A stretch of 64,000 bases of DNA from Mytilus trossulus (taxonomy: Eukaryota): assembly GCF_036588685.1 (NCBI RefSeq), contig NC_086386.1, positions 47,554,001 through 47,618,000 of the forward strand, written 5' to 3'. Both the position numbers and the translations under genes were made by a program. The notes under the pieces were generated by a model that worked only from the letters and a program-made list of their open reading frames with translations, had not been told where the DNA came from and made no database searches. Below, one piece after another: positions 9,772-64,000 of the stretch (within the stretch, counting starts at the first letter, position 1; every line of letters starts with the position of its first letter).

Positions 9772-10100
9772 ACATCACTGGGTAAATACCTCTGCTGGTG
9801 GACTATCAGTCCCCGAGGGTATCATCAGTTCAGTTGTCAGTACTTCGGTACTGACATGATGTAACATACTTTTCTAAAATTGTCCGTTTATAAATTATTA
9901 AGAAACTAAGGTTTCAACTCCCTCAGGCAAAGTTGACTTGAGATGAATTTGGCTATCAAATTCAGATATTTTTGTCATAAAGCTCTTCAACGGTTTCGGT
10001 GGATTTCAAATGTTTGGATTTGAGAATTCCTGATGAAGGTAAATCCAGAAAAGTGCTTCGGAGGCATTGAAATTATAAAACGTGGTGTTTTCAATTTTTT
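9772..10100 (+). ncRNA. Second retrozyme family copy, degenerate hammerhead at 10024-10065
   Basis: CTGATGA aggtaaatcca GAAA agtgct TC^ ggaggc. The body shares ccccgagggtatca and acttcggt blocks with the 355-nt family. Confidence 0.7.
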
Positions 10101-11209
10101 AATGTCATTCGAAATTGATAGAATATTTCTATATGACATAAAGTTCTTCAATTGAATGCTTTTTTTACATTTAATATATTCGGGTTTCAAATGCAAAACA
10201 CTAAAACATTTTACCAGAAATATTAATATTTATAACAAACGTCTAATTTGGAATTCAGACAGAACATTTTTATCGTATCAAATTTTCTATTTCAAATAAT
10301 AGTTTAAAAATGCAGAAGCATAATTTTCCCGTTGACCATTCTTGTAGCTAAATGTTTGTCTCTAAAAAATTGGCACATGCACTTTTTAATTTAATATCTT
10401 TATTTTCATGAAACTTAGCTTTTAAGATGACAATAATAAATATCTTTAAGACCTTGAGGTTTTAGATGATCTATAAAACACAATCTTATGTCGAAGACAA
10501 ACATCTTTTGACTGTAACTTTTTTTTTTATTAAATTACCATCATCAACAAGTAAGAGAAAAACAAAATATTCTTTGAAATTCATTGTATACTCTTATCCT
10601 TAGTTACATCAAGATCAAATATCGAGAATTTCACTGTTGCTAAGTTTTCAATATCAAATCATATTAAAGAAAAGATTGCATTGACAATGGCTCAGAAATA
10701 TTAATCAATTATACTGATGGATCAGTCATTTGGTATTGTCAACATAGTCTAATATCAAACGATAATATAGATACGGATGTAGTTTAGTTTCTTCTTCTAT
10801 CTAATGATTGAATAAATAATCACATGCAACTCGTTCGTTCTCTATACAACAAACGTTAGTAGAAGCATCTTAAAATTAGTTATTAAGATACATTGCTTGT
10901 ATGCTGTCTACCTATAAAACTAAATGAAGAGTAAAATGGAGAATGAAAATGGGCAATGTGTTTAGTTTAAACATATTTTATTTGCTCAAAGCGAAAAAGG
11001 ATCAGACACAAGTAAAACATACTTATAAAGTCTTCTCCACAATACAATATATACAACAATACAAATTGAACATGAGCATGCATCATATAATATAAACAAC
11101 ATACATATTACTTATCTATACTGAAAAAAGTAAAGGGAATGAGAAAAGAACGACAGAGATTAAGTTGATGATGATAATGATGATGATGTGCGTTTTACCT
11201 ATGTTGATA

Positions 11210-14200
11210 CTATACTACGAGGAATCGTTTTGATCTCTTTATAAAATTGAATACTTGTTTAAGAATTTGCACATTTTGATCATAGGAAAGAGTTTCTTTT
11301 CCAAAAACCAGTAGTGTTAAGTCCAAATCGCAGCCTTCGGGAAGCCAGCTGAGACCATTAAACAGAATAGCCCTTTCATTTAAATAGAAAGGACAATCGA
11401 AGAAAAAATGGTGCATGTCCTCAATATCCAAACCACATTTACATGTTGGATCAGATATAATGTTAGCTCTAAACAAGTCACAATTCAAGAACGATGCCGA
11501 ACATCTAAATTGGGTTAATATTATGTTCAATTTTCTTGGACCATATAAATAATGTTTTAAAATAGATTGATTCTCATTTCGAATTTCGTAGTTTTTTAAT
11601 TCTACTTTGAATTTTGATAACGAGTCTACATTTCGAACTGATATGTTCAAATTATTCCAAAGTTTAATTGTTGATGGGATAAAGGATTGGGAAGTCAGTG
11701 TCAGCCTGCAAAATGGTAAAATGATATCTTGTCCATTTCGCAAGGGATATTGTGTTGTACATTGAATTTTAGGGGGCACAAGGTTACATAAATATTCAGG
11801 GGCATTATTATTCTGAATTTTATAAAATAATTGTAGTTTTCTTCTCTTTCTTCGTTCCTCTAAAGTTTCCCAACCAACCTCTTTTAAGACAGTCTCAGAG
11901 TGTGTGTAAACAGGCAAACCTGTTACAATTCGTGCAGCTTCAAGTTGTAGCTGTTCTAATTTAATTGAATAACCTTTTCCGCAATTGTCCCATACTTCAG
12001 TTGCATATTCAAAAATTGGTCTAATAAATACTAGATATAATTTTTCCAAATTTTGTCGGCTAAGTTGATATTTGAGTTTTCGCAATATATTCAGATGTTT
12101 TTTAACACTATTTAATATGTTTTCAACATGGTTGTTCCATTTTGCGTCACTTCTAAATGTAACCCCTAGATGCTTATGAGATCGCACAATTGGTATTTTT
12201 TTGTTGTTCATAGTAAAATTAGGGTTTTTTATCTCATTATTTGAGAACATCATAATTTCTGTTTTTTCAGGATTAAAAGACATAAGCCACTTTCTTGACC
12301 ATTCATCCAGCTGTCTTAGGTCACGACTAACAACTGACTGTATAAGTTCCTCGTCATGACCCGAGTAGCTGAACGAAGTGTCATCTGCAAATAGTCTGCA
12401 TAAAGAAGTTAACTGTTCAGCAATATCGTTAATATATATAATAAACAATAAAGGACCAAGAACGGATCCTTGGGGTACACCAGCTGAAACATTGCAAAAA
12501 GTAGAGGATGATTCATTAATGATAACCTTTTGTTTTCTTTGGTATAGGTAGCTAGTGAACCAATTTAAAAGATTTCCCTCAATGCCATATGCTTTCATTT
12601 TATGTAGTAAGCCAATATGCCAAACTTTGTCAAAAGCCTTTGAAAAATCACAAAAAACAAAACAGCAAATTTCTTTTGTTTCTAGTGCATTTAAGATACA
12701 ATCATAGATTTCTATTAATTGATGCACTGTTGAATGTTTTGGCAAAAAACCTGATTGGTATTCATAAATTAGTTTGTTATTAAATAGATGATTATATACA
12801 TGTTTAAACACAACTCGTTCCATAACTTTCCCCACGCAACTAATTAAAGATATTGGTCTGTAATTAGATGGCAAAGAAGAGTCCCCCTTTTTGAAAATAG
12901 CTATTACATTTGCAATTTTCCAGCTGGTTGGATATATACATTGACTTAGGGACTTGTTGAATATAATTTGAAGAGGTATTGCAACTTTATCTGGACAGAT
13001 CTTGAGCATCCTGTGGCTAATCACATCTGGTCCCGAGGCTTTATTTGGATCAAGAATATTAATCATATCTATAATTTCTTGAATAGTGACATGTATGTCA
13101 CAAATTTTATTGTTAGATTTAGTTTCAAATTGTGGTAAGTTGATATTTTCTTCATTTAATTTGGAGATTAAATTAAAATACTTGTTCAAAAGCTCACATT
13201 TTTCTTCATCTTTATATGCTATTTCGTCTATTTTTTCGGTATTTATAATATTTTGGAGTGGGGGGATGTTATTTGATCCATTGTTAGATTTGATTAACAT
13301 TTTCATAATTTTCCAATAAGTTTTTGTATTCGATACATTATTTAGAATGATGTGGTCTAAATTACTTTCAAATTTTTCTTTAGCAACTTTTTTCATATTA
13401 TTGACCCTATTCCTCTGTCGCTTGTACTTCAAAATATCAGATTGTATTTTAGATTTAAAAGCCTTTTTTCGTAATCGATCTCTAGTGCGTAATTCTCTCC
13501 TAAGCTCACTATTGAACCATGGTTTGTCGTTTTTTCGTATAGTTACTTGTTTAGTAGGTATGCACTCCCTTGCAATGTTCAGAAAAGTTACAGTAAATAT
13601 TTCACATAATTCATTAACATCCTTGTCATCGGGAAGAATGGCATGCCAATCTGTTTCATTCATAATTTTCAAAAATTTATCTTTATCCATCTTATCATAT
13701 ATCCACACTTCTCTTTTGAAAGTACGTGACACTGATGACGGACACTCAAGAAATATTACTGCTGCATTGTGATCACTAATATTTGAGGGAATATCTAAAA
13801 CATCTGATAGATAATATGACATACAGTCACTTATTATAATGGGATCTAAGAGTGTACTACTTTTATCAGTAACTCTTGTTGCTTTATCAATTACATTTCT
13901 TAGATTGAACAAGTCCATAGTGTCAATAAGTTTATTATTATTGACATTAAAGAGATCAGAATTTAGATCACCAGTAATCACTATATTTTCGTTTAATTGA
14001 AAGGCAGTTTCTATTGCATGATTTAATCGTGCCCAGAAGTCAGTGTCCGCATTCGGTGGACGATATGAGTGACAAAGAAGGAAGTTTTGACCTTTGGCTC
14101 GTATTTCAACCCAAAGTGTTTCATCAAATGGATTTTCTAGTTCGCTTTTTCGGACGATACCGATATCATCTTTCACATAAATCATTAATCCACCACCAAA

Positions 14201-14476
14201 GTTGTTTCGATCTTTCCGTATAATGTTATTGAAGGAATCTAGTTTTAATTGATCTTCAGATACACTAGGATCTAAATGTGTTTCTGTTACAGCCAGGACA
14301 TCAAATTCGTCAGTGAAATTATTTAAGAATTCTAATTTGTTTCTAATACTACGGATATTTAGATTACATATTGATATGGATTTATCGATTTCACTAAATC
14401 TGACACTAGAAGGTGTACTCGATATGTTATTTTCACAATAAGAATAAAATGAAGCACAAACAACAGAAAAATAATG
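11210..14476 (-). CDS. LINE ORF2: APE endonuclease, reverse transcriptase and C-terminal Cys/His motif (open frame begins upstream of the annotated Met at 14185)
   Basis: NLNIRSIRNK, LAVTETHL, RKDR..GGG, YRPP, GDLN and SDH (APE). NYRPISL, DFSKAFD, GVPQGSVLGP and FADD (RT). CKC..EDMHHFFFDC at the C-terminus. The frame is open from just after a TGA at 14477-14479. Confidence 0.93.
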   Translation of the reverse strand, partial: HYFSVVCASFYSYCENNISSTPSSVRFSEIDKSISICNLNIRSIRNKLEFLNNFTDEFDVLAVTETHLDPSVSEDQLKLDSFNNIIRKDRNNFGGGLMIYVKDDIGIVRKSELENPFDETLWVEIRAKGQNFLLCHSYRPPNADTDFWARLNHAIETAFQLNENIVITGDLNSDLFNVNNNKLIDTMDLFNLRNVIDKATRVTDKSSTLLDPIIISDCMSYYLSDVLDIPSNISDHNAAVIFLECPSSVSRTFKREVWIYDKMDKDKFLKIMNETDWHAILPDDKDVNELCEIFTVTFLNIARECIPTKQVTIRKNDKPWFNSELRRELRTRDRLRKKAFKSKIQSDILKYKRQRNRVNNMKKVAKEKFESNLDHIILNNVSNTKTYWKIMKMLIKSNNGSNNIPPLQNIINTEKIDEIAYKDEEKCELLNKYFNLISKLNEENINLPQFETKSNNKICDIHVTIQEIIDMINILDPNKASGPDVISHRMLKICPDKVAIPLQIIFNKSLSQCIYPTSWKIANVIAIFKKGDSSLPSNYRPISLISCVGKVMERVVFKHVYNHLFNNKLIYEYQSGFLPKHSTVHQLIEIYDCILNALETKEICCFVFCDFSKAFDKVWHIGLLHKMKAYGIEGNLLNWFTSYLYQRKQKVIINESSSTFCNVSAGVPQGSVLGPLLFIIYINDIAEQLTSLCRLFADDTSFSYSGHDEELIQSVVSRDLRQLDEWSRKWLMSFNPEKTEIMMFSNNEIKNPNFTMNNKKIPIVRSHKHLGVTFRSDAKWNNHVENILNSVKKHLNILRKLKYQLSRQNLEKLYLVFIRPIFEYATEVWDNCGKGYSIKLEQLQLEAARIVTGLPVYTHSETVLKEVGWETLEERRKRRKLQLFYKIQNNNAPEYLCNLVPPKIQCTTQYPLRNGQDIILPFCRLTLTSQSFIPSTIKLWNNLNISVRNVDSLSKFKVELKNYEIRNENQSILKHYLYGPRKLNIILTQFRCSASFLNCDLFRANIISDPTCKCGLDIEDMHHFFFDCPFYLNERAILFNGLSWLPEGCDLDLTLLVFGKETLSYDQNVQILKQVFNFIKRSKRFLVV

Positions 14477-14664
14477 TCAATCTTGGGATTTATAGACTGT
14501 AGACATGCTAGTGAAAGAACATAGACGGAGCAATGTAAGTTGATTTTTAGTATTTCTAAATAAGTATAATAGTTATAATTTATAAAAGTACTACTTTTCC
14601 TCTTGCTACATGTACAATGAAATAAGCCAATGGCTGCCCTGTAATCCTCAATGCTGACTCCCAT
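14359..14664 (-). CDS. Probable true N-terminal leader of LINE ORF2, out of frame with the rest
   Basis: MGVSIEDYRAAIGLF... followed by a hydrophobic run. It overlaps the ORF2 frame over 14359-14476 and is offset by one base. Confidence 0.6.
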   Translation of the reverse strand: MGVSIEDYRAAIGLFHCTCSKRKSSTFINYNYYTYLEILKINLHCSVYVLSLACLQSINPKIDIIFLLFVLHFILIVKITYRVHLLVSDLVKSINPYQYVI

Positions 14665-16086
14665 ATTGCTTAGGGGGTACAGATATTAAGTCTAACGACA
14701 GCCAATGGCATTTTCCGTATGGTAACTTGCACACATCATCATCATCAGAAAAAATAGAGAAAGTAAATATAAAACAAGAAAAATAAAAAGTCATGGTGAT
14801 GGAAAAACAAACGGATTTCAGAAGGATACATGGAGTCATACTGGATGATAAAAATGGGATTTTGCTTAACTTTTACTATTTTTATAAATCAGTGTGAACC
14901 GTGATCTAGCCACTATTTTTAAAAGACAAATTATATGAGCTGAAAAGTCCAAACATACTGTTGGTTTATAAAAGACGAATACCTACCAATATGGTAATAG
15001 TATTAAACACTTTATACTTGCATCTTGAGTATACAGGTTTACATGATATGTATATATATAAATCAAACATATAAATCAAACATAAATAGTATGTACAATT
15101 GTGTGTGCACACAATACTATTTTATAAAGAATTTAATCAGTATCTCCTGGTTTTCCTTTTATAGTGTTAAGTTACAACAATAAGGTTTTTTTTTACAGAC
15201 AAAACTATGTACACGGAGAATATATTTGTACTTTTACATGCATTCGATTATTTCTTACTATCATATTTTGGTTCGTGTTTGGGTTAGGCAAGGGCGGTCT
15301 GTTTGACTTTTATATTTTTGAAAACTTCTTTTGATCAAAATCGACATTTTTCGTTAATAGATTTATTTAATTACAAGCTATAAAAATGTACAATTAAGCT
15401 GATATGATTATAAGCAAAGTTGTCGAGAGAAGAACAGAACATGTGTACGTTCACTATAGAATGTCACATTTACACTGCTTTTTGTTTTTATTTTGAGTGA
15501 TTGAGAAACGGTAATTTTATCAACTGTTGAAAAGATCTTACGATATGTAAGACCATTTTACTACTTAGCCAATTTGGGATGACCGTTTATATAGTTGTCA
15601 TGATGTGGAAACATATTTTTGGGATTTTTTTTATTATTGAATGACAGACTTTGGTTGTATTTTGGCTACCAGAACAACTAGAAGAAAATCAGCTAAACGG
15701 TTATAAAGTGTAACTAATTTAACCGTCATTAGAGCATATATAACAGGGAGGAAAACAGAACAAAACAGAAGAAAATGAACTAAACATGAAAATAATTAAA
15801 TCAAACATAAAAAAAAAATACACACACACACACACAAAAAGCCCACATATAACAAACAAACAATGTCTAGGTTATAAATTATTGGTAAACTTTTTTTTTT
15901 AAACTTTTGTTGATAAGATATCAAATTTTAAATCTGGAATAAATCAGTTTTTATAACTGTCTCTAATCACTCATGATCTTCTGATTGCTGGTTTGCACTG
16001 TCTGGCTGATTGTCAGCATGATTGTCAGGATGATTGCCATAAGCAGCAGGCCTTTTATATGGAGGTCTAAGATCACCAACGTCCTG

Positions 16087-17124
16087 TCAATTCTGTATAA
16101 TCAGCTTTCTGCTGTTTTCGGATTTTTTTGCGAATATTCGACCGTCGGCAGTCCAGTAAGCATTGATTTCATTTTTAGTTTTCATATCGGCCAGGCTTTT
16201 TACTAGTTCTGTTCTATATTGTGATAGGTTTTCAGTTATGAAAATACCATTTGTGTCACCCTTTAGTTCCCTTTTATTGCTGTACACCAAATGTTTCATT
16301 CTATATGATATGAACCTGACTATAACTTGGGACCTGCCTTTTCTTGCCTTGCCTATAACATGAGACCTTCCTATGTCATGCAGGTCTATGTTTATATTTA
16401 GCTTGTTCCTGATTATATCCAATACTATCTCATCTGTATTGACAGGGTGTAAGGTCTTTCCTTGGTTGTCAGTAGGAACTGGAATGTTATGAAAACGAAG
16501 ACTCGTTCTTCTAGAATATTGTTCCTGTGATTCTACTCTAATTTTGAGGTCAGCAATTTCATCACTCAGACAGTCAAGGTCTTTGCCTTGTTCTTTGATT
16601 GTTGTTATATGGTTTGAGGTAGCCTGTTCAAGGTTTGATATTTGTATGAACTGTTTAAGGATGTGTTGCTTGTGAGTTTGTATTACAGTTTCTTGTTCCT
16701 TTATTTGTTTTAGTAGTGGTTGTATCTGTATATCAACGAATCTTTTGGCCTCTTGCTCAATTATTGGTGTAAGGGTATCACTGATCTTTTGTGACAATAA
16801 AGGTATCATAACGTTAAGAACTTCTGGGCTATTAAGAGCATCAAGTACTTTATCGGCAACTGTTTTCCTAAGTGTTGGAGTTTTTCTTTCGCCTACTCCT
16901 CGCAGATCCCCAATTGAGTTACTATGACGTCTGCGGATTTGACGAGTTGACTGTTTTTGTGTGGCTGGTAGGGAGTCTGGGCTATCAGGATTACCACGTT
17001 TATTGCTGCCAGTTATTATGGAAGAGATTGATGGACTTGGCTGTGAGCTAGTCAATATAATGTCGGACTGAGATTGAGACTCAATGTTTACATCAAAGGA
17101 GGCATCCATTTTGTGTTCACTCAT
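16087..17124 (-). CDS. LINE ORF1 (coiled coil plus RRM/CTD-like nucleic-acid chaperone)
   Basis: Heptad-rich segment followed by EQYSRRTSLRFHNIP, IGRSHVIG, VIVRF, IFITENL and WTADGRIFAK motifs typical of L1/L2/CR1-type ORF1. The frame stays open 39 codons past the TGA, to 15967. Confidence 0.88.
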   Translation of the reverse strand: MSEHKMDASFDVNIESQSQSDIILTSSQPSPSISSIITGSNKRGNPDSPDSLPATQKQSTRQIRRRHSNSIGDLRGVGERKTPTLRKTVADKVLDALNSPEVLNVMIPLLSQKISDTLTPIIEQEAKRFVDIQIQPLLKQIKEQETVIQTHKQHILKQFIQISNLEQATSNHITTIKEQGKDLDCLSDEIADLKIRVESQEQYSRRTSLRFHNIPVPTDNQGKTLHPVNTDEIVLDIIRNKLNINIDLHDIGRSHVIGKARKGRSQVIVRFISYRMKHLVYSNKRELKGDTNGIFITENLSQYRTELVKSLADMKTKNEINAYWTADGRIFAKKSENSRKLIIQN

Positions 17125-17847
17125 CTTGACCTATGGCTATTTGAATGTTTTGTCTAATTGTCTAATTAATTGTCAGTTTTATTTAGTTTACGAGGGATCA
17201 ATCACGATTCAATTGTTTAAGTTGACTATTTAACGATGCATGTGTTCATATCATATACGTTATCCATCATAAAAATCCCATTTTGTTGGTCAAATATTTT
17301 ACCCTACCATTCCAGTTAGCGCATGCCCAGGGCAATGTGTTAAAGCGACCACAACCCCACTAAATAGAAGAAAACAGTCTACCGATAGGTCTTCAACAAA
17401 GCGTGAAAATCACGCACCTAGAGGTGGGAGTCAGCTGGACCTTTTCTTCGCACTTTTGCTCATAGTTAAGACCTACTTGTTTTAGTTGTTTCTCCAATAT
17501 CCGGAATAACTTTAAAAGTGTTCTAAGCGAGCATACCAGGTGCAGTGAGATATTATCACCATATTCGATAGGGCTAAATATTTTGCTTATCAGGTCGCGT
17601 TAGACTCATCAGAGAGCAGTTGCTATGGCAGTTGCACGTAAAGAGGGTAAAACATTCAACCTACAAGAAGCCTCGGATTGACATTCTGCACTAGACGCTG
17701 CTGAGTTTTTATACTAAGTTTATTTACGTTATATGTATACAATAGTATTATATAAGGTTTATCATATACTAGATACTGCATTGAATTTCGATTTACTCGA
17801 TTCACTAGATTCCTTATGTTTAAAAGTCGATATGAAATTTTGTCTTT

Positions 17848-18140
17848 TCACCAGACACGTCTTTCGTCTACAAAAGACTCATCAGTGACGCTCAAATAAA
17901 AAAATAAAAAAAAAGCCAAATAAAGTACGAAGTTGAAGAGAATTGAGGACCACAAATTCCTGAACGTTTTGTCAAATACAGCTTAAGAATTATATTCCTG
18001 AGGTAGGAAAGCCGTAAACAGGTAATTTATAATTGAGACCATATCAATGATAATTTATGTCAGCACATACTGGGCTGGTAATACTCTCGGGGGAATAAAA
18101 AATCAACTAGCAGTGGCATCGACGCAGTGGTTTAATATAC
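17848..18140 (-). ncRNA. Degenerate retrozyme with hammerhead (about 17848-17891), sense to the TRPC intron
   Basis: Reverse complement: gcgtca CTGATGA gtcttttgtagac GAAA gacgtg TC tggtg, with helix III disrupted. Confidence 0.75.
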
Positions 18141-19402
18141 TTAGAGTTACACTTTACCGCGGTTTTGTTTTTTAATTTTATCTATTAACATCGTCGTAAG
18201 TGTTTGGTCTCGGGTTGATATTTTCCTGACTGAAATAATACCATGTTTGCTGCATTAATGGATTTGGGGACGTAGATTCATTTCCTAAAAAGGGTAAAAA
18301 AAATCCCACACCCAAGGGTGGGCCTCACCTGTCCCCTAAATGTGTACTATTTCAGTGAAATGAAAAGTTTGGATACTTCTATCAGTGAAACCATGGTTAC
18401 ACAATGGAAACCTCAATAAATTAATTGCATCAAATATCAGAAGATAAAGTTGTTAGAACAAATTACCTTCCTGCAGAAATTTGTATGATATTTGATTTGA
18501 TTCACAACGTAAATCTATGAGGAGTTAAGGGTTATGTTCTCATGACATTGCAAAAAGAAAAAATAACAAAAATATCGAGCTCCGGAAGTCCCTATGCATA
18601 TGGCAAAATCAAAAGCCCAAACACATCAAATGAATTGATAACATCTGCCATATTCCTGACTTGATGCAGGCATTTCCGTATGTAGAAAATGGTGAATTAA
18701 ACATGGTTTATAGCTAGCTAAATCTCTCACTGGTATGGCCCAATTTAAATAAAAGAAATCACCGTAACGTATGCGATCAAAACAAAAATAGGCCGTTTAT
18801 AACGTGGTATGAATATTTGGTCGGTTTTATCTTGCACTGGAAAATGCGGATAAACAAAAGTGCGAAGAAACTCTGAAAGGTTAAATATCTCATATCAAAT
18901 CATTAGCAGAATAAAAGTTATGTTAATCGAAGAATGAAACGCTTGAAGAAAGAATATGTGTTTGCATATACTATGATATATATAATGTAAAATTCTGTGC
19001 AGCAATGTGTTTCATCAAGGAAGTATAATCAACGCTGATCAATAGAGCACTCAATGATTAATAGCCAGATATAATATCGACTCAATGCATTATGATGCTC
19101 GTGATTGATATCTAGTGTTAATTGTGTGGTAATACCAAAGTTCTGTGACAAATGGTTTAATATAAGGATACGAATCCACAATTCTTTTAAATAATATTTA
19201 ATGAGGGCCATGGTTAAATCTCCAATGCATTAACGTTACGCTCTTTAATATTTGGACCGTACTCCCAATATAATACCTATAACACGGTGGGTAAGGTTGT
19301 TCTGCGAGAGAACGTTCTGTGCTGGTGATCCGGTCCTGACGGGTGCTGGTGATCATTGAAAAATGTAAACACAAGTAAATTTGTACTGTAAAGCGTTTTA
19401 AA

Positions 19403-19833
19403 GCGTCACTGATGAGTATTATGTAGACGAAACGCGCGTCTGTCGTACTAAATTATAATCCTGGTACTTTTGATAACTATTTACACCACTAGGTCGATGC
19501 CACTGCTAGTGGACGTTTCGTCCCCGAGGGTATCACCAGCCCACTATTTAGCACTTCGGTGTTGACATGAATAGCAATTATGTGGTAATTTTTATAAATT
19601 AACTGTTTACTTAACTTTGAATTTTTCGAAAAACTAGGGATTTTCTCATCCCAGGAATAGATTACCTTAGCCGTATGTGGCACAACTTTTTGGAATTTTT
19701 GATCCCCAATGCTCTTCAATTTCGTACTTGTTTGGCTTTATAAATATTTTGATATGAGCGTCACTGATGGGTCTTATGTAGACGAAACGCGCGTCTGGCG
19801 TACTAAATTATAATCCTGGTACCTTTGATAACT
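19403..19833 (+). ncRNA. Retrozyme: 355-nt unit flanked by two type I hammerhead ribozyme motifs
   Basis: gcgtca-CTGATGA-gtattatgtagac-GAAA-cgcgcg-TC^tgtcgt (cut after 19440) and gcgtca-CTGATGG-gtcttatgtagac-GAAA-cgcgcg-TC^tggcgt (cut after 19795). About 75-nt terminal direct repeats. Confidence 0.88.
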
Positions 19834-22229
19834 AATTAAAGCACAATTTCATTAAATAAAAAATAAAAGCTTATTATCTAAACGATTATACACATTTAGT
19901 CACGCTGAATGAAACAATTGACACCGGTAAAAAACAAAAATGTGATAATATGTGTCTGAAGAGTATTTTTATTATGACGTTGCTTACATCCTAAACATTT
20001 TTTTTGCAATTGTTCAAAATTCAGCGTGACCAAATGTGTCTGGATCAACCTTTATTGGGAATGATCAAATCAAATATTTGAAAGTCAACGATGTAACAGA
20101 ACCGAAGTATGTAAACAGCATAATGAACAAATGAAATTAAGTATTAAATACTAGTTCTCTTTGTAGAATCATCTAACCATGATTTTTTAAAGTCATTTGA
20201 AACCAGTGAGTGGTTAAAAATAATTTTAATCCAATTCTTGAACTAATGCATGTATATATCATAAACTTAGAACTCTGTTCACGATTTTGTCATTTTTTAC
20301 GCAAATATATCGTATAACCCACATTTTTTTTTCTCTGTCTGTTATGATTTAACAAATATGGCTGCTCATTAAATGCCGTGTTTTAAAGCCGAAGTTTATC
20401 GATTGTCACCTTATAGTAAACACATAACAAAAAGCATGTGTATTGAGCACGTGTTTAACATGTACAATCAGATACGAGTAGGGTTACGCTCAGGTCAGTA
20501 TGCATACGGATACTATGTCGGCGAATTGCTTCCTGGAAGCAAGCAATTAAAAATAAGTAAATATCTTCTAAATGTGCACAAATAAAAGAATTTTCCTCAG
20601 AAAAAAGTTTATGTACATAAGTTGTATAATAAAAACTATCCATTTAGTTATAAAAAACATATGTATGATTTTTTTTTAATTTGAGGTTTCCTACGACTTT
20701 AAAAAAAGTATTAACAAATTCTGACCTTCAAAGTAAATAAAAAAGGGTTGGTCTAAGAAAACTAACAAAATCAAACGTTAGACTTTATCAACCAACGTAA
20801 ACAGTGAAAACAACTGTCATATTCATGACGTGGCGTGTCCCGGAAAATAAAGAATGGTGGTTTAAACTTGGTTTTAATGCTGGCTAAACATTCAACTTGT
20901 ATGATCGTTGTTTAAAGTTTTGTTTTATGTACAAAATTGTATAAGCAACCTAACCAGACAAAATTGTTTATGTAACAAGGGTTGGGATCCTACAGTAAAA
21001 TAAGTAACATACGTCAAAGACATAAAACACAACAACAAAAATTAAACAAATATACAAACAAATCTTACGAAGGCGTATTAAGTAATATTTACATACGTTT
21101 AAAAGATTGGTACAACTATTACGTTATCAAAATTAATTTTTTTTTTTAAATGATTTGATCCATGGCTACACGGAAAACCCAACAGAATGGTATATTAAAA
21201 AGTTTATCTTTACATAAAATCGAGGAAAATAACATGTCGTAATTTAACCCTTTCTGTTGTTAAAAACCACAACTTGTGAAAAAAAAACTAAACAATGCAC
21301 AAGTGAATGATAAACTATCTACCATTTTAGTTATGACATACATGATGTAAAGACCGGAAGGTTACATGGATAATTTTATAATCTTGTTTGCGATGTTGTA
21401 GTTTCTGTTTTCATTTTTCGAAAAATCAGTGAGAATCTCAAACTTATTTCTCTGTCAATCAGAGAACTGAAAAAATCTTCGTCTTAATCTCTGAGAGGAA
21501 TTTTTGGGATGTGGTTTCCATGGGGTAACAAATAAGGAGTAAAGTATATGGATCCTGGAAAAGTTAAAATAAAACATGAACATGAACTCCCCCGTCTCAC
21601 CCCCTCATCCCTAAAGAATCAATCATTATATCGTTTAATGCAACACGTGATCTTATAATTATCATATGTATCATATTATGACAATGATTACATAAAAGAT
21701 CTTTATAAGTATGACAAATTCATATTGGTGTGAGAGAAAAAAACAACATTTTCACAATAAAGCCAGTTTGAACTGTTATAGAATCTTGTAGTTTGTAGGT
21801 TAAATGTGATGTAAACTTTTTGGATGATTTTTGTTTGCATAAAGACTTTCTGTTATAATTAGTAAAATCTTTTTAGTTAAATCTCCACAACAAGACAAGG
21901 GAATCTCTCCTATGCATAATTTGAAACCAGTGCTACCGTACTAGATTTAACAGTGACCCTCTATTCGGTTCAATACAAAATCACAAACCACATAATTGTC
22001 ATAGAAAAAAATGTAATTTGTTTCTTACCTAAATGCACTGAGAAAATTCATTTACGAAATGATATTTATTGACCAGTTATACTGTTATTACACTCCTAAT
22101 AGATCGATCTAAGCAAAGAATTTAAGAAATGTGTGTTATTTTTTATTAATTAGTTCACTGTATCCATATGATCTTGTCAATTTTATTTTTTGTAGGTTAC
22201 ATTTGCAAACGTTAAATGAAATGATACAA

Positions 22230-22454
22230 ATAGTTATCAAAGGTACCAGGATTATAATTTAGTACGCCAGACGCGCGTTTCGACTACATAAGACTCATCA
22301 GTGACGCTCATATCAAATATTTATAAAGCCAAACAAGTACGAATTTGAAGTTAATTGAGGATCCAAAATTCCAAAAAGTTGTGCCAAATACGGCTAAGGT
22401 AATCTATTCCTGGGATAAGAAAATCCTTAGTTTTTCGAAAAATTCAAAGTTTTG
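22230..22454 (-). ncRNA. Truncated retrozyme with hammerhead (about 22264-22307), sense to the TRPC intron
   Basis: Reverse complement: gcgtca CTGATGA gtcttatgtagtc GAAA cgcgcg TC^ tggcgt, with one helix II mismatch. Confidence 0.82.
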
Positions 22455-26712: not shown

Positions 26713-27852
26713 GGTATGTTTCTCTGCATAGATGACATATTGCAGATCCTTTCACAAAACAAATTGCACGAGGTATTTTGTTAACTTCAAATACTTTACC
26801 AATCATAAACATTAAACCAATAACTGCCCTTTTACAAATAAAACGTAGAAATATAGAGACGAATATAATATGAGGCTGGTATGCCACATGTCACAGTGAT
26901 TGATTGAGCGACAGGCCAACAATCTATACCCGTCAAAAAAAGATAAAAAAATCGTAAAATATAAAGACTAAGAATATTGGAAAAGGAATAAAAAAAATTC
27001 AACCATTAAAATATGCGGTACGACCAGTTTGGCATCAACATAAATAGCTTCTCTGCATATATACAACATACAGCAGATCCGACCATAAGTAGATATGTAT
27101 TGTATGAAATGAAATCACAATATCAATCATTTTCATTAAACCAAAGAGATAGCTCTTTCACAGAACAAAACGTTTAAATAAAGAGACCAATATAATATTT
27201 AGACAGGTGTGTCATTTCGATTTATTGAGACACAGGCCAAAAATATATCCTCGAAAGAACTAAACATAAACGTTCTAGGAATGTGAACTGGAACCGTTCG
27301 CTCCCTATGCGACACACAGCGCTATTGTGAGTTATAAGTTGTTAATATCATATGTGAAAGAGGGCGAAATCTGCACAAGCAGCTTTTGAAATAGCATTAC
27401 TTATTTTTTCTAATGAAATTAATAAAATTACTTTACAGGCTTATGCTTAGGTCATCATTTTTTTTAACATTGTGCAATGATATTACAAAAAACACATTAA
27501 AAAACAGAACTAGTTATACACCAAAGTTATAAGCTTCAGAATCCAAAATACACACATCTCGAAAGACAGAATTATATAGAATTGCAGAAACCAAATTTCT
27601 CTAAAGAAACGGACAAAAGTTGTCTAGGATATGGTACGAATCTGATCCGTATTACCTTTTTGATGTGCTCCCGTTTGGTTTAGACATATAAAATAGAATT
27701 GAGTTGTCTCCCCTAAGCGTACTTTTTAAAAGTGTTGGAGAAATGTATGGTTGTTCAACAATCAACTTGCAATTAAAGCAAAAAAGGCACTGAAAATGTA
27801 TCATGAAAAGGTAGGATGGGTTATTACATATACAAATATTTGTCTATATTAC

Positions 27853-28821
27853 CTGCTTTTGCTCATATTTTAAGGCAAGTTTCAGTCTTGATAAAGTCAG
27901 TTTATCTTCATTTGGATTCCGTTCAAGTGCTGCACCGAAGCCGGAAAAATCCTCATCCGACGGATCACATTCTTTGTTTAAGACAGCTATTACTTCCTCA
28001 CTACTCCGACATTGGTCCAGCAAATCACATGAATATCGTCGACATTGGTCACGGAGTTCCATATAAGTATCCTTGAATTCGTTCTCACGGAGGGCTAGTT
28101 TTTCTAACGTATGTGATAATTTGAATGCGGTCAAAATAGGATCGGCACTCGTCAATGAAATCCAGGCTGGACTCGCCAAGGCTCGGAAAGTGTTAATACG
28201 AAATAAAGAATGACGTAGACTGTCTTTGTGAACCTGTTCTTGACAGGTTTTGCATGAACATGATAACTGATGTGGGGGATTAATATCTGCCCCTCTTAGC
28301 AAAAGTAGCTGTAGAATTTCAAACTGATTACAGTGCGCTGCCAACATTACTGGAGAAATATCAGATGAGTAATCGGAACTCTCTTCACCTTGTCCGTTAT
28401 TTTTCATTTTGGACCACTCGGAACCTAGCATGTTAGATTTGATTGACGGATGGTCAATTAGCATCTCCACAATCTTGTAAACGCCTTCTCTAATGGCGTA
28501 TAACAAGGCATCTCCAATTTCAACCCCATCCTGTTGAAGCAATATTTCTACGATTTCAACATTTTCGTTGTCAACAGCAATTTGAATTGCCGATCTTCCA
28601 AGCATATTTGTACAGTTAACGTTAACGGGATTTGGTTCATGTAAACAACGTACAACAGTGTGTTTATCTCCCCTTTCGACTGCCTCCAGGAAAATTCGTT
28701 CATTTGTATTTGACCTATGGGATACCTTTAAAGGCTCTAGTGGCATTTTGATTGGACGAATACGAAGTGAACGCTGTGAATACTGGGATGACATCCTCTC
28801 TGATATTGTTTTGATGCTCAT
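27853..28821 (-). CDS. TRPC: TRPC-family (TRPC4/5- or TRP-gamma-like) cation channel, coding exon 1: ankyrin repeats and Zn-binding motif
   Basis: ATG at 28821, preceded by acceptor tttttacag| (exon starts 28842). Ankyrin repeats (FLEAVERGD, LGRSAIQIAVDNENVEIVEILL, GDALLYAI, SPVMLAAHCNQFEILQLLL), HxxxCxCxxC motif, ALASPAWISLTSADPILTAF, LSRLKLALKYEQKQ. Donor CAG|GTAAT, phase 0. Confidence 0.95.
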
Positions 28822-29254
28822 TTTGATGATAGCTCAGTCTCACTGTAAAAATAAAAAAAACACATTTTTCTTAAATAAATCCCAGATCAATGTTTCAATG
28901 CGTGGTTATATTCATACAAAACTAAGAAAATAAATAAAAAAATCATTTCAAACGTTGTTACGAACGAAAACTATCAGGTAATCAGTTGTTGCAAACATCT
29001 CTTTTAAATTAAAACGTTTGCAGCAAGTTTCAACGATATCACTTCATCTTTTCATAAACATGGGGGAAAAAGTAAAAAAAGTCTTCAAACCCAGACAGTT
29101 GCAAGCTCGCCTGCATCGACAGGTTACGCGTCTCCATATTACAGGTGCATTAACCGCCTTGCGAATCCCCATTCAGTCAAAATGTCACAATCATTCTAGC
29201 TCAATGCGTTTATATTATTAGGAATTTCATATCTCATTTGTAACTTGTAGACCC

Positions 29255-37811: not shown

Positions 37812-37855
37812 GCATCACTGAAGAGACAATGATTGTCGATATGTACATCTGATGC
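37812..37855 (+). ncRNA. Third-family type I hammerhead with perfect helices and a GAAA->GATA core mutation
   Basis: gcatca CTGAAGA gacaa-tga-ttgtc GATA tgtaca TC tgatgc. Confidence 0.75.
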
Positions 37856-40080: not shown

Positions 40081-40083
40081 AAT

Positions 40084-42174: not shown

Positions 42175-42333
42175 ACTTTTAGGAATGTTGGTCCTCAATG
42201 CTCTTCAACTTCGTACTTTATTTGGCCTTTTTAACTTTTTTGGATTCGAGCGTCACTGATGAGTCTTTTGTAGACGAAACACGCGTCTGGCGTATACATA
42301 AAAATCAGTCCTGGTATCTATGATGAGTTTATT
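42175..42333 (+). ncRNA. Truncated retrozyme with core-intact hammerhead (42250-42293)
   Basis: gcgtca CTGATGA gtcttttgtagac GAAA cacgcg TC^ tggcgt; tail gtcctggtatctatgatgagttt. Confidence 0.82.
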
Positions 42334-48531: not shown

Positions 48532-51500
48532 ACTAAGCTTAATGATAATTGTCATATTGATACACCTGATAGGGAAAGATAACGCATTGAATTACCACAT
48601 GATAAAAGTAAATAAATAATTTATATTTTTATTTGAGGGAAGTTATGACATCTGTAGATTAAAGGTAGGAATACAGGATAAATGCGAGTTGAATGTTAGG
48701 CCAGTGCTAAATCTATCATTGTATTCATTCCCTTGTCCTGTTCCAATCATTTATTCACCCGTTCACTCATTTGATTCTGATGATAATGAATTAATGTATT
48801 ATATGTGGTTTGTAGTAACAAACAAGACCAATTGGATTATTTTCATAATGTTCTACTATGATTCTTTCCGTTTAGAATACTATTCACTTAAAAAAAAAGT
48901 TTAAAAACTTAAAAAATCATGTTCACATTGATGTTCTTTTTTTTCTTTTTGTCAAGATATTTTTAAATTGTTTCCAAACTTCTTTTTTTAAATAATTTTA
49001 ATTTTAGAAATATATATGATCTTCTGTCGACTGTAAAACTGAACTATATTCCATGTAATGCACTTTTCGTGTAGTTCAGTCCTTTTCAATAGCTGTTAAC
49101 CACACGGGAGCTGTATAATATCTAAATATAGCTTTATCTGAACATAGCTTGAAAACAAATAAACTGAGATAAAGGGTATTCGCTAATTAATGACATCACG
49201 ATCTAAAGTTGCAAGGCAATTTCATTTGAATTAACGAAGAAAAACATTTTTTCTCGACATTTGTATTTGTTTTGAAAATGCATGGTTTATTTACTATTAG
49301 ACTTCAATCAATTAACAAAATTCTACTCGAAGTAATGTAGTAGGTGGTTTTCTATGCTTAGGAATAACACCAATGAGAGCTTAAAGGTTCTGATGATTTA
49401 TTTACCAGTATATAAAACAAGTCACTTGTGGAGTGAGTTGTGCTGATACGGTTAACGGCACATCATATAAACAACAATCATGTGCTCTACATAATTACAT
49501 TACATGGAGTCAGTATTCTATAATAATGTTGTCCAAAATATATAAGGTTTACAGGTAAACTATGTGGTCAAGATAAACAGACATAAATTCAATGGACTGT
49601 CATGGCTATCGTCCGTGGAAATGTACAGGTCCAAAACAAAGGAAATTAAACTTGACCGCGAAATATAAACAGCCAATCAGATACAATGATTTAAGTAAAT
49701 CCCTAATGAATATTCATAAAATAACGTGAATATTACTATACATAAAAATAAGGTTTGCAAGTAATAATTTAAACTGAATATAAAATATTCAAAATATGTA
49801 ATAAAGCTTTTATAATAAATATAGTATTTAAATAGATGATTTTTACAATATATAAAATGATCATAAAAATCACTCTACTACAGTAATACTTTTAAAAGAT
49901 ATCTCAATATGAATATTGATCCGGCACTTAAATGTTAAAACTGTGTAAATCGTAAAGAACAAATACAGTAACCATTTTTAAACATCTATCTTATCAAAAG
50001 ATTCACGTATGTGGAAAACTTCTCGCCGATTCAATTTACTTTTTCTATGGTCTAACAGAATCTACAACCCATTACCACTGTTACGTTTGGTCCTTGGTGC
50101 TGTTCATCTTTGTACTTGTTTTGGCTTTCAAACTTTTGTTTCTGGGCGTCACTAGTAGGTCTTGTGTGGACAAAATGCACTTCTGGCGTATTAAAATTCT
50201 AACTTGTTGCCTTTTGTTGGCTGTTGTTCGTGTGATTCTTTGTCAATTGTGTTCTCCAATTTATTTATATTGTAGTCCTGTGGTGTTGTGTTGTCATATT
50301 GATGTTGTATTTCACATGGCCATAAAAGTGCGAGGTTTGGCATGCCACAAAACAAGGTTCAACCCACCATTTTTTCCTTTAAAAATGACCTGTACCAAGT
50401 CAGGAATATGGCCATTGTTAAATTATAGTTCGTTTCTGTGTGTGTGTTACATTTTAACGTAGCGTCGTTTGTTTTCTCTTATTTTTGAGTGTAAATTCAC
50501 ATTGCGATAAAACGTGTCACGGTACTTGTCTATCCCAAATTCATGTATTTGGTTTTCATGTTATATTTGTTATTCTCGTGGGATTCTGTCTGATGCTCGG
50601 TCCGTTTCTGTGTGTGTTACATTTTAGTGTTATGTCGTTATTCTCCTCTTATATTTAATGCGTTTCCCTCGGTTTTAGTTTGTTACCCCGTTTTTGTTTT
50701 TTGTCCATGGATTTATGAGTTTATGAACAGCGGTATAGTACTGTGGTCTTTATTTACTGCAATGATTATAATTTATTTTAAAATATGGAAATGCTATATT
50801 CCGATAAAAAATCTACTTTCCGAAAATTTCTGTTCTGAGATGAAAACTACATAGATTTTTATTTAAATAGATTTTATTTCAATAGTATGCTAATAAAATT
50901 CAAATGAAATAATTTACGGATTCTGCAATGACTTCCTTCAGCCATATAGTATAAACATTAAGGATGATGTATGCATCTGGCTTTTATTATATATACTGTA
51001 CGAAAGGTTACACAGTGGTAATTCCTTCTCCATACCCGGATCATGATAAGGCTGTTTAGAATTTTAACCGGCTTTTTTTTTTTACACCGATCCAGAACGT
51101 ACATTCACGGTTAATGGAAGTACTTTCATTTTAATATTCAGAAATAAATGAGAAAATATTGAATCAACGATGACCATCTTCTTTTTACTGCTATCTAGTT
51201 AGTAAACGTAAGACCATTCGGGCTTTGTGACCTTTCGTCTTGCAGTGAATCCAAAATGTTTACAAATTAATTTTCACTTTTGTGTAAAGTCATTTAAAAC
51301 ATTTTAAAACACCTGACTTATTTTTTGCTGGAAAAATATGTTCAGTAGATGCTGCATTTGTTTTGTCCAATATTAGTGTTTAGTTATATTGACCTTAGTA
51401 TGGTATACAGAAGAGAAATCTAGTTCTCGAAAGTAAATACGATCGTTACACCTAAATGCGTAATACTTATATAAAACAATATTTATCATATTAACAAGGT

Positions 51501-51787: not shown

Positions 51788-52146
51788 TAACTATTTACAC
51801 CACTGGGTCCATGCCACTGATGGTGGCCGTTTCGTCCCCAAAGGTATAACCAGTCCAGTAGTCAACACCGAACGGTGTTCACATGCATATCAATAATGTG
51901 GTCATATTTATTAATTTCTTGTTACAAAAGTTTGAAGTTTTCTAAAAACTAAGGATTCACTTATCCCATGCATAGATTAGCCGTAATTGTCACAACGTTT
52001 TGGAATTTTTGATCATCAATGCTCTTAAACTTTGTACTTGTTTGGCTTTATAAATATTTGGATGTGAGCGTCACTGATGAGTCTTTTGTAGACGAAACGC
52101 GCGTCTGGCGTACTAAATTATAATCCTGGTAACTTTGATAACTATT
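51788..52146 (+). ncRNA. Retrozyme monomer with intact type I hammerhead (52068-52111)
   Basis: gcgtca CTGATGA gtcttttgtagac GAAA cgcgcg TC^ tggcgt. The body is homologous to 19474-19833. Confidence 0.88.
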
Positions 52147-53595
52147 AACTTTTCCATTGCAATTCTTGATATCATACTATTATATTTTACCTTCGCACAA
52201 CCGCTGTTTCATATTTGTATTTAATAATAACTTTGACGGTTTGCTTGAATATGTTATAGGGATGTTGACTTTAGTAAACGTAACCTTGGATTAACATGGT
52301 TAACGCACACCTTTCTCGTAGATAATAACAAATACAACGTACCTTTCAACTTTTCAAAAATATAGTCAGTAACAGCATCCTATCTGTAAACGTAATGTTT
52401 CTTGTAAAGATTAATATAAACGATATTAATCACCATATATTTAATTACAATTGTCTTACATAGAACTAAACCACTAGACATTGATATATTTAAACTTAGG
52501 ATAAATTTTGTATCTTTTAATATCAAAATCAACTAGCATGATAGATTCGCAAAGTCAACAAAACTGTTCTTTCATTCAATGATCTGACGGTTTTAAATAC
52601 GGTAAGATGAAATTTCACGAAACCTGTTATTAGTGTTTGCTTCTGATTTCCCTTCTTTTCGTGGACGGCAGTATCCAACCAGCAACTTAACTATTTTCCT
52701 GCAGTAGTACCACTAAAGTGTTTTTTTTATTACCTCGTTCAAGCTGATAGCCATCTCGTTACTAGCTGCACAGTGCACTGATTGTGTGTTTTAGTTTTAC
52801 GAAATATCATGTATGTATATGGCTTAGATTCACCACAGGTTGTACCTGTACCGAGTCAGATTATCTGGACCAGGTGTTGGTCCTTGTTTTTGTTGTGTTT
52901 GTTTGTCTCATTTGTTCCCGGAGTAGTTGTGTGGTGGTTGTTACTGTAGTGTGTTGTACTATGTGGTACCTATTTGCGATGCATGTGATCCCCTTTTATG
53001 CATTATAAAATATGAAAAAGGACACTTTATAAAACACTACACAATTAGATTGATACTGATCGATACGAACGCCATCATTAACCAGGGATGAACTCGGATG
53101 AACACATTACATAGAAATATATACCAGTGCTTAATTATTTGGTGTTTTGAAATTTGCAAATTTGATATGATTAACAGCCTCCTTAGTACTTTATTATTCC
53201 TTAATTGTCACATCCAATATTAGTGATTTGCGAAATAATACTCTACATAACAATTTATGTGATTATAAAGAAAAAGTTCAGCGACATTTTAAAGACGTCT
53301 TCAATGTCAGCTTGATTAAGATATACGAGTACCCTTGCTTCTTACTTCAAGTTTAATTATTTAGTCATCAAAAGTGTACCTAGGTGGAAAGGTGTTTTTT
53401 TCCTTAGCCTTAACAAATGACATAAAAGATTAAATTATATTATTTTCTTTCTTTGTCTTCGTCAAATGTAAACCCCAGCTTTGGAAAATCTTTAGATACT
53501 GTATTTACTAGTTCAATCACAGTATTCATCTATATTGACAAACGTTAGAGTTCTTAGTTCCTAGGAATGAAATACAACCGTTCCATCTTTTCAAT

Positions 53596-59166: not shown

Positions 59167-59322
59167 AAGAATAGTTCATTATCTTAAAATTGCCGGTTGC
59201 AGTAACACTTCAGATGAGGTTATACAGTCTTGTCATCAAATTCACACATCATATATGTATGGCAGATGGAATCGCTATACTGTCTTGTCTTTCTGATTTA
59301 ATTATTTGTGTTTCTCTTCCAG

Positions 59323-61175: not shown

Positions 61176-61472
61176 GTAAGTATCATTGTTAATGTCACCC
61201 AGCCTGTAAATTAGTCAGAAATTTAAACCTTAAGAGGTTCGACACAACGATAGATGATCAAACAATTCTATTGAGTATTGTAGCTGTGTCAAATATTTGC
61301 GACGTTTCTATCGATTTCTGTCGGCATATTGTACTTTTGTAAATCAATGATTGAGGTAAAAATGTTGATTGGAGCATAGTTGAACAAATTTAACTCAAAG
61401 AAATGTAAATATGCCTGTCTTTAGACAGGTATTTCTTCAATGTTTTATTTTCAGTTATATTTTGTGTCCTTT

Positions 61473-61592
61473 ACGTACTTTATTTGGCCTTTTTAACTTT
61501 TTTGGATTCGAGCGTCACTGATGAGTCTTTTGATGAAACGTGCGTCTGGCGTTTATACTAAATTTAGTCCTGGTATCTATGATGAGTTTATT
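61473..61592 (+). ncRNA. Truncated retrozyme with hammerhead (61512-61552), sense to the OCA2 intron
   Basis: gcgtca CTGATGA gtc-tttt-gat GAAA cgtgcg TC^ tggcgt. Confidence 0.78.
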
Positions 61593-64000
61593 AATAAAAT
61601 ATGGAATATATGGCGGTATTTCTGGTGACCTCTGTTAAATTAACCATGTCATAAATCTTGACATTTAAAAAGTAAATTAACAAAAATAACGAAATTCCAG
61701 AAATTTGTATCGACAAAATATTTTTTGGAAAAGTTCAAACACATAAAAGAGCTTGACATATGTTGTGTTGAGTATTGCCTATATGTAACAAACTCATATG
61801 TGTTTTGTGATTTGTTTTTGTCCTTTTCTTGACTGTAATCATTTTCATACTACTTACTACTACAATACATTTGATCGGTTACGCACGAAACTTATAAACT
61901 ATCATTTTCATTTACTTCATTTAAAGCTTTTAAGTTTTTTGTAATCTTTTGAAGGAAAAACCAAAAAAGAAAAGAATTAAGATTACCCAATATGAGTATA
62001 TATGTATATATCCGTTCATCCTATATTGAGTCTAAAAATGAGGGTACATTTTATATTGCCTTCCAAAGACCGTTTCGATCTCCAACATCACTGTCGAAAT
62101 CCGGATCTGGTGTACTAAAAAGATATTGACACCTTTTGTTTGTGGCATAACATCATGACCACAAGTTAATTGTTTTCTTTTTAATATTAGATTTATATTA
62201 AGATCCATTTTGTTACATCTTGTGATCAATTTTATTTGGCAATCGCCAATGGCAGTAAGCAGTGTTAAAGAACATCAGTTGTTCGACTTGTTAGTCAAAT
62301 GCGTTTTGTTTAAATATACTTTTCACTTTTTTGGTCTTTTGGAAAATGTTGTTTGTGCTGTATTTCGACCCTTGTACAACGAAATTTGTTTTACATGCAC
62401 ACGTATAAAATTGCGTTTTTTATCCAACGCAGTCATAGGTTTGAACGTAGTTTTCAATTTATATATACCTTTAACTGTGTTCATAAGGAATAATCATTTA
62501 CCAGGAAACTACAAAGTATACTGATTATACATCAATCTTTTGTCGATAATTTTTACAAGATAGATATACATAATAAACGTTTTGGTTTATATTCTTTAAC
62601 ATAAAACAAAGGATGTTTTATTTTTTTGAATTTTTCGGGAAATTGAGTTTTAACCCTTCTTGTAATTTATAGCTTTGCAGGTATAAGACTATTACACTTA
62701 TCAATCAAAGTCATTATTGCAACCACATGCATGGCAGATCAATTATGAATCAAAGTGTTCACTCTTGTGTTATAATCAAACGCAAAAACAATTACCAATA
62801 TGTCATTTAAAGAGGAAACAGTTTTCTCACAGTAAATGTATCCAAGAGGCTAAGCAAGTATTTAATTTCAACTTTGCATTGCATCATTTCATGGGATTTT
62901 GTTGTTCTCAATTACCAAATTCGTATCATTTTACATAACATGCAGATAACATGTTATCTCGTGTGAAATAAACCTATTCATAAAATAGATAAATGCATGT
63001 TGTCAGGTCATTAAATATTGCATATTTTGGCGTTAATATTGATTCACTTATAGGGTCTTTGCATCGGAAATAAACACATTTAATCAAAAACCAGTTGTTG
63101 GCATGACACGGGTTATGTTCCTCTGATATATGTTATGATGGTATGATACTAAACCCCTAACGGGAAGGATTGTGCCTGATATTCATATGATGAAATCATA
63201 ATCTTTCAATCAGTTTAATTGAAGTCTGGAGCTGGCATGTCAGTTATTATGTATTATTGTCGTTTTGTTTATTTTCTTTGGTTACATCCTCTGACATCAG
63301 ACTCGGACTTCTCTTGAACTGAATTTTCATGTGCGTATTGCAATGCGTTTACTTTTCTACATTGGGTAGAGGTATAGGGGGAGGGTTGAGATCTCAAAAA
63401 CATGTTTAACCCCGCCGCATTTTTGCGCCTGTTCCAAGTCAGGAGCCTCTGGTCTTTTTTAGTCTTGTATTATTTTAATTTTAGTTTCTTGAGTACAATT
63501 TGGAAATTAGTATGGCGTTCATTATCACAGAACTAGTATATATTTGTTTAGGGGACAGCTGAAGGACGCCTCCGGGTGCGGGAATTTCTCGCTACATTGA
63601 AGATCTGTTGATGACCTTCTGCTGTTTGTTTTTTCTATGGTCGGGTTGTTGTCTTTTTGACACATTCCCCTTTTCTATTCTCAATTTTATGGTTATTGTT
63701 TTGGTGTGAAAATTTTTTCATCTTTGATAAAGACAAAAGTGTTCAATGCATTATATTAATGTATACAAACACTTCTGAAACCCGATCGGTTGTTATTATT
63801 TTGGATAGATGGCCTTCAAAGTTATCTTTGCAAAAGTGAAAAATCCTTAGATAAAGGTCGAGCCAAGGTCATTACAGTATCAATATATCTACGCCTACTG
63901 AAACAACAAAGATCGGGACTGTACCTGTTCTGTGAACTGAAATTGATTTTTCAACCGTTTAATTTCTAAATCTTTTTCCAAGTAAAACGAAATCATTAAA

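Follow-up and report, generated by a model that had tools for sequence, protein, structure and literature searches.

Introduction

Metazoan type I hammerhead ribozymes typically have a short palindromic helix III and occur as many families per genome (PMC4209133; PMC6765202; published work is cited here from the parts of each text available to us). The idea that such palindromes permit cleavage as a dimer, including alternative palindromes within one species, is in print from 2011 and 2014. Palindromic stem III/loop III sequences have been tabulated as support for dimers, with two loops each in S. mansoni and A. aegypti (PMC3088659, Fig. S8; PMC4209133), and the initial annotation of the DNA considered here rightly treated dimer cleavage as prior knowledge. 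That DNA, hereafter the window, is a 64-kb stretch (contig NC_086386.1, positions 47554001-47618000) of the 1.3-Gb genome of the mussel Mytilus trossulus. We report that its hammerheads belong to retrozyme families with family-specific helix III palindromes, and we consider it probable that neighbouring copies in one transcript form a double hammerhead that cleaves faster.

The closest described elements are the retrozymes without long terminal repeats (non-LTR retrozymes) of Mytilus galloprovincialis, which are likewise tandem repeats of 350-355 bp with a low guanine-cytosine (GC) content, bear type I hammerheads, exist in many copies and are transcribed (PMC7229834). The text available of that paper describes two families of 350-390 bp, whereas the genome studied here holds more, including families D and E with units of 550-580 bp and family H with units of 441 bp. 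The D/E units exceed the 170-400 nt given in PMC7229834 and fall within the 51-972 bp of a source that also ties retrozymes to Penelope terminal repeats (10.64898/2026.07.22.740005). Double-hammerhead repeat ribozymes (the newt/avocado sunblotch viroid, ASBVd, model; PMC3088659, Fig. S8; axolotl HHR_Amex1/2, PMC7229834) share the short helix III, the palindromic loop and the tandem transcripts, and in the axolotl family, which has the same helix of 2 bp plus a tetraloop, the dimer was reported to cleave much better (PMC7229834). Unlike these systems, the present one combines a series of five families in one-pair steps with a dead-lineage control in a single genome, its dimer dependence being predicted. 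The minimal hammerheads of Penelope-like elements also have palindromic positions 15.2-16.2 and loop 3, with many families per genome (PMC4209133), but families A-E reside in short non-coding tandem units and not at the ends of reverse transcriptase genes. The fixed 3' tails of 30-45 nt and the (TA)n targets found here resemble the tails of 30-40 bp and the (TA)n targets of Penelope-like elements (PMC8557442).

Results

Hammerhead families and their helix III octamers

When the window and 400 kb of neighbouring sequence (464 kb in all) were scanned with a strict descriptor, family A alone was returned, with 16 matches, so that families B-E had to be found by pattern. The families were accordingly located genome-wide by exact sequence patterns, each with control patterns. 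The searches gave 20108 matches for family A, 1014 for family B and 7082 for the core common to C, D and E, compared with the ~5000 copies of the M. galloprovincialis retrozymes (PMC7229834); the controls (A, B, C/D/E core and D/E) gave none. Tallies for B, C, D/E and for a dead family described below were counted by hand on the first 100 matches listed per search.

The majority octamers of five related families are ACGCGCGT (A), AAGCGCTT (B), ATGCGCAT (C), ATCCGGAT (D) and ATCTAGAT (E). All five are palindromic among the matches listed, contrary to the outcome that would have refuted the initial annotation, and each lies one symmetric pair from its nearest neighbour. Among the listed matches, family B carries its majority octamer in 73 of 100 (of 1014 in all) and AAGTGCTT in 6, and family C in 96 of 100 (of 5341), the outer letters being fixed by the pattern. 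Families D/E show CCGG in 53, CTAG in 40 and other cores in 7 per 100 (of 1494), under a pattern that fixed the outer ATC/GAT of the octamer. The initial annotation had claimed at least four families in one genome, each with a different palindrome. We see at least five related retrozyme families, and the family-level palindromes stand far above chance as judged by the empty control searches; two of the four octamers that it cited were, however, wrong. One, AAGTGCTT, is a decayed AAGCGCTT, and the other, ATGTACAT, is found in none of the 100 listed of 193 family C variants and among none of 12 double changes. Two further candidates were rejected: ATGATCAT as a sixth subfamily (7 occurrences at 6 loci) needs 5 changes for 6 rows, and 141 of 500 shuffles score as low, while apparent B/A chimeras at helix III (8 loci) proved to be point changes plus duplicated loci, with no family switch past the cleavage site in the family B rows.

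Units measure 350-355 bp in A, B and C, 560-578 bp in D and ~550 bp in E, with a GC content of 36-38% in A and B and of 33-38% over the measured units of A, B, D and E. Those of A, B and C are mutually 66-71% alike; D and E resemble each other at 85% and have nothing but the hammerhead region in common with C. The common architecture of A-E comprises a helix I of 6 bp, a helix II of 4 bp (2 bp in B) and a helix III segment of 8 nt, and intact copies, including the one at 52068 in the window, possess the type I core (CUGANGA / GAAA / UH), helices I-III and an open helix I. Tandem short repeats with one type I hammerhead per unit and a GC content below 50% are what characterizes non-LTR retrozymes.

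A search for other helix II types returned 1245 matches against 88 for its control. Family H takes up 50 of the 100 rows listed (AGCT in 47 of the 50) and family G 16 rows (ACCGGT in 11), and ATAT occurs in three Penelope-type families (13, 3 and 2 rows listed) whose helix I strands differ. One of the three, family F, sits behind a reading frame with RVT_1 and GIY-YIG, which assigns it to a Penelope-like element; it is not represented at the annotated sites. Across about ten families the palindromes measure 4, 6 or 8 nt. Family H (loci L120-L124; G000:C1:83696584-83704121) forms tandem units of 441-457 bp with a bulged helix II, a helix I of A/U only and the AGCT helix III; its arrays adjoin family E at L148.

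Covariation and decay of helix III

The covariation claimed in the initial annotation is borne out by the family majority octamers, which covary at all three variable pairs, and not by single decayed copies. Families A, B and C differ at stem pair 15.2-16.2 alone (C-G, A-U and U-A), where covariation is expected in a monomer too. Loop pair 3/6 distinguishes C from D, and central pair 4/5 distinguishes D from E; because neither can close a normal lone hairpin, these two events speak for pairing between copies. The covarying structure was picked from the same sequences, and the controls lean accordingly. In a tree of 59 D/E bodies, hammerhead excluded, CTAG needs 4 changes, 1 of which is forced by the starred branches, a result compatible with a single origin as well as with several.

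Individual copies had also been adduced, with the G-U-compatible variants AAGTGCTT and ACGTGCGT taken as covariation. Among 24 family A copies of the 464-kb sample that were anchored independently of the octamer, 12 have ACGCGCGT; of the changes, 6 are C>T, which G-U pairing tolerates, 6 are G>A, which it does not, and 9 are of other kinds, and only 3 of the 12 non-consensus copies keep self-complementarity. Since the compatible C>T is as frequent as the incompatible G>A, the G-U variants are simply the compatible half of the usual CpG decay.

In family C the double change CG>AT recurs at the octamer centre in independent copies (L186-L192). Of the doublet events, it makes up 6 of 11 at this centre and 1 of 15 at a CpG located 9 nt away that served as control (Fisher p=0.02), whereas for all symmetric doublets the figures are 6 of 11 and 4 of 15 (p=0.23). 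One possible cause is slippage in which the neighbouring ATC is copied. The 12 doublets of family C compare with ~190 copies altered at position 4, and no symmetry-breaking change is fixed in any intact retrozyme family seen.

A captured lineage with a dead core

An element of ~830 bp has captured ~250 bp of an A retrozyme, including a hammerhead with four core substitutions (102 pattern matches). Its octamer is ATGCACTT in 64 of 100 copies listed; self-complementary octamers number 0 of 100, and at none of 25 dead-family loci does a second pattern match lie within 1.5 kb. This loss of symmetry in a core-dead lineage may serve as a natural control that, as far as sequence can tell, supports selection for double-hammerhead pairing. 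The combination of family covariation at all three pairs with asymmetry in the dead lineage points to the same selection. In the window the captured hammerhead lies within 50086-50214, other loci being L161-L185, and the listed variants ACGCACGT, ACGCACTT and ATGCACTT suggest stepwise decay.

Predicted folding, arrays and insertion ends

Folding predictions place the lone 2-bp helix III hairpin at +2.4 to +4.8 kcal/mol and strand-swapped homodimers at -10.6 to -16.5 kcal/mol, in agreement with the initial description of a helix III too short to fold alone and self-complementary, as the majority octamers of A-E are. For all 6 natural two-copy transcripts modelled, the cis double fold is predicted to be more stable than two single folds by 15.1-18.2 kcal/mol; in the five transcripts that are intact it comes within 1.8-4.1 kcal/mol of the free minimum. 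Of 91 pairs of same-strand neighbours at most 700 nt apart, 82 combine copies of one family, with the caveat that pairs in the same array lack independence. A single nested insertion that was duplicated accounts for 6 of the 9 mixed pairs, and the crude rule separating C from D misassigned at least 2. Pairing with an identical neighbour would suffice to account for the symmetry of the octamer.

Insertions end at a fixed point of the unit other than the cleavage site (loci L002-L192; window positions 19844, 22228, 52149, 10101 and 62461). The end lies past the cleavage site by 40-46 nt in A (36 of 44), 32-41 nt in B (13 of 13) and 33-36 nt in C (14 of 17), and at unit position ~374-379 in D/E (19 of 36), and almost always runs into (TA)n. 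Such ends would be expected if target-primed reverse transcription copied a circle or a multimer, and D/E may have a (TA)n-targeting partner element. Copies of D and E often flank a single (TA)n tract in tail-to-tail orientation, one on each strand (L114, L147, L156, L157).

Transcripts

Four RNA runs were aligned at 85% likeness to one locus bearing A, D and E copies. The hammerhead-bearing strand is favoured in three of them, strongly for A and E and weakly for D, provided that the libraries follow the commonest stranded design, with an antisense first mate; the fourth run has no strand bias. Reads also span the cleavage site, which is compatible with circles and tandem transcripts alike. 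One of the four runs shows 123 molecule ends (depth 614) at a distance of 2 nt from a family A cleavage site; a mismatch adjoins this point and would cause two letters to be clipped. These ends fit cleavage in vivo and are mute on monomer versus dimer. A stretch without hammerheads (L156:5303-5576) has stranded RNA coverage as heavy as that of family A.

Copies and other features of the window

All eight octamers of the initial annotation occur where it placed them (Table 1), each flanked by GAA (GAT at 37841) and C within type I hammerhead-derived sequence. Among these sites only 52068-52111 keeps an intact core and helices, the type I core being broken in several others. The annotated set was incomplete, as it omitted three non-palindromic copies carrying ACACGCGT, AGACGTGT and ATGCACTT. 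Rfam Hammerhead_1 (RF00163), whose consensus octamer is ACGCGCGU, recognizes five window copies, whose scores of 25-33 bits fall short of the gathering score of 34; the best score among the window copies, to which the scan was confined, is 32.5 bits (E=3.4e-4). No frame of at least 150 amino acids covers any A, B or C copy in the window, frames of that length across the D copy require TGA read-through, and one stop-to-stop frame of 168 amino acids crosses the dead-family copy on the opposite strand.

Table 1. Hammerhead copies and their elements, in window coordinates.
Feature	Position	Strand	Remarks
Family B hammerhead, decayed	10024..10066	+	helix I only 3 bp; octamer AAGTGCTT at 10051, a CpG-decay variant of AAGCGCTT
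Family B element carrying the 10024 hammerhead	~9753-10101
Family A hammerhead, divergent subfamily	17848..17891	-	non-palindromic AGACGTGT; element ~17850-18143
Family A tandem	19402..19844	+	hammerheads 19403-19446 (helix I/II mismatches) and 19758-19801 (A9>G) flank one 355-bp unit; both ACGCGCGT, at 19432 and 19787; end ~43 nt beyond second cleavage site
Family A copy, 5'-truncated	22228..22454	-	hammerhead 22264-22307, ACGCGCGT at 22271, one helix II mismatch
Family C hammerhead	37812..37855	+	core broken, GAAA>GATA; ATGTACAT at 37841, a private double change of ATGCGCAT
Family A hammerhead	42250..42293	+	ACACGCGT at 42279, symmetry broken
Core-dead A-derived hammerhead	50146..50189	+	non-palindromic ATGCACTT at 50175; inside another element of ~830 bp
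Family A copy	51788..52149	+	intact hammerhead 52068-52111, ACGCGCGT at 52097
Family A hammerhead	61512..61552	+	helix II lacks 3 nt; ACGTGCGT at 61538, CpG decay
Family D copy, 550-580-bp unit type	62005..62461	+	remnant 62085-62113 without core and helix II; ATCCGGAT at 62099; runs out into a TATATA stretch

The GC content of the window, in bins of 2 kb, is 27-38%. Exons of a TRP-type cation channel (ankyrin, TRP_2, Ion_trans) lie on the minus strand at 4569-6770 and 27844-28905, and 9 of the 11 hammerhead copies listed are on the plus strand, opposite this gene. A long interspersed nuclear element occupies 11210-17130 on the minus strand, with a stop-free frame of ~1090 amino acids for endonuclease and reverse transcriptase and, upstream, a frame resembling its first open reading frame (ORF1). 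The selenoprotein element model SECIS_1 has a weak match at 63127-63189 (28 bits against a cut-off of 35, E=0.24), beside which no selenoprotein frame is recognisable within the window.

Discussion

What could keep the octamers symmetric while their sequence changes? Dimer-assisted cleavage fits best and is, in our view, probable. Two neighbouring copies in one tandem transcript would swap strands and form a double hammerhead, faster than a lone copy. The partner would be an identical neighbour, so the helix III segment would have to be self-complementary, and families would drift through rare symmetric double changes. Multimers would be cut efficiently, and the weakness of a lone hammerhead would help the monomer circle to persist. 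Dimerisation would thus assist cleavage without being obligate, and poor cross-pairing between families would be a by-product involving no selected code.

Several observations pull in the other direction. A single-unit genomic repeat of M. galloprovincialis cleaved at ~0.1/min, slower than the 0.8/min of a coral repeat (PMC7229834), and pairing may therefore bring only a modest gain; the mussel clone may differ from families A, B and C, and trans dimers were possibly part of its activity. The covariation in the loop amounts to two family-level events, with a chance of ~0.01 by our rough estimate, and the D/E tree fails to separate CTAG from CCGG copies cleanly. Individual genomic copies can likewise acquire symmetric double changes, as CG>AT shows at 6 loci that form no single clade. 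The dead-family control comes from one lineage, and neither tertiary contacts nor the order of folding during transcription enter the folding model. The G-U-compatible variant of family B has 6 rows against 3 with G>A at the partner position, per 100 listed, and this excess of C>T leans slightly toward the interpretation of the initial annotation. There is also a weak candidate family with the non-palindromic ACAT (2 rows listed, no helix I visible).

The copies might instead be monomer ribozymes with a 2-bp helix III, their symmetry inherited from a dimeric ancestor and kept by few founders and by symmetric mutation, either as doublets at the central CpG or through template slippage. Monomer activity has been published (PMC7229834), and most invertebrate type I hammerheads are reported to cleave efficiently as monomers (PMC7761336); A, B and C differ solely at a pair that covaries in monomers too, and the recurrent CG>AT doublets at the C octamer centre exceed those at the control CpG. 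We nevertheless find this explanation unlikely: single symmetry-breaking changes are far commoner than doublets, yet none has become fixed in an intact family seen, symmetry was lost in the dead lineage, and the palindromes of different lengths recur in about ten families and in other phyla (PMC3088659, Fig. S8). Covariation reveals pairing and not its purpose, however, and the palindrome could have been selected for RNA-RNA pairing in a step other than cleavage, such as the pairing of circles in reverse transcription or a circle held as an inactive dimer. That monomers cleave, and that PMC7229834, in the text available, leaves open what blocks cleavage in circles, would agree with such a role. 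Against it, the swapped duplex rebuilds exactly the A15.1-U16.1 helix required for catalysis, and dimer-enhanced cleavage has been shown for the axolotl family with the same helix (PMC7229834), which makes this proposal very improbable.

The initial annotation went further, suggesting obligate dimeric catalysis and orthogonal self-recognition, that is, palindromes as a selected address code against cross-cleavage or trans poisoning among co-expressed families. The octamer indeed differs in all five families, reads of A, D and E appear in the same RNA runs, and heterodimers are predicted to be 6.3 (D/E) to 33.8 kcal/mol worse than the homodimer mean. Such a penalty would, though, follow from any symmetric change, which gives two mismatches in the hybrid. 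A selected code predicts dissimilar octamers, whereas the five share 1.3 of 3 variable pairs compared with 0.71 for random distinct palindromes (1.6% of draws are as alike), and the nearest families are one pair apart, the minimum, with GCGC common to A, B and C, a similarity that stepwise descent predicts. ATAT is shared by the three Penelope-type families, D and E have helix I in common and retain 3 bp beside each core, and same-family tandem arrays render a trans code needless. Orthogonal self-recognition is therefore not supported, and obligate dimerisation conflicts with the published monomer cleavage (PMC7229834; PMC7761336, as far as their available text goes), so that we regard the obligate, coded system as the least credible of these explanations. 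Some insulation between families may exist, to judge from the modelled energies. In a bolder variant, which we think quite unlikely, helix III and helix I would act together as a working self/non-self filter: trans dimers would form among abundant RNAs, cross-family dimers would be selected against, and one symmetric double change (CCGG to CUAG, D/E) would found an insulated lineage. Neither heterodimer discrimination nor a between-family code was found in the literature searched, a search outside which most subscription papers lie.

Taken with dimer-assisted cleavage as the preferred explanation, the hammerheads of M. trossulus are real and ordinary examples of an established class; their families outnumber the two in print, and the dead lineage provides a good natural control. 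The core idea is already published, and the discovery value is accordingly low. The D/E families of 550-580 nt that target (TA)n and the dead-family control were not found in the literature searched, although the supplement of PMC7229834 may list more mussel families.

The families do offer a natural test set for an unsettled point, the tension between reported monomer cleavage and a loop symmetry explained only by two-copy pairing. With a dead lineage, five sister families one pair apart and, in D/E, two families whose catalytic folds differ only at the central loop pair, the contribution of monomers and dimers and the cross-talk between families become assayable. If the self/non-self filter were true, published "monomer" activity of invertebrate retrozymes would largely be dimer activity. 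Were cross-family insulation selected, genomic parasites would possess an RNA-only system of self-recognition, from which orthogonal dimer-gated ribozymes could be drawn.

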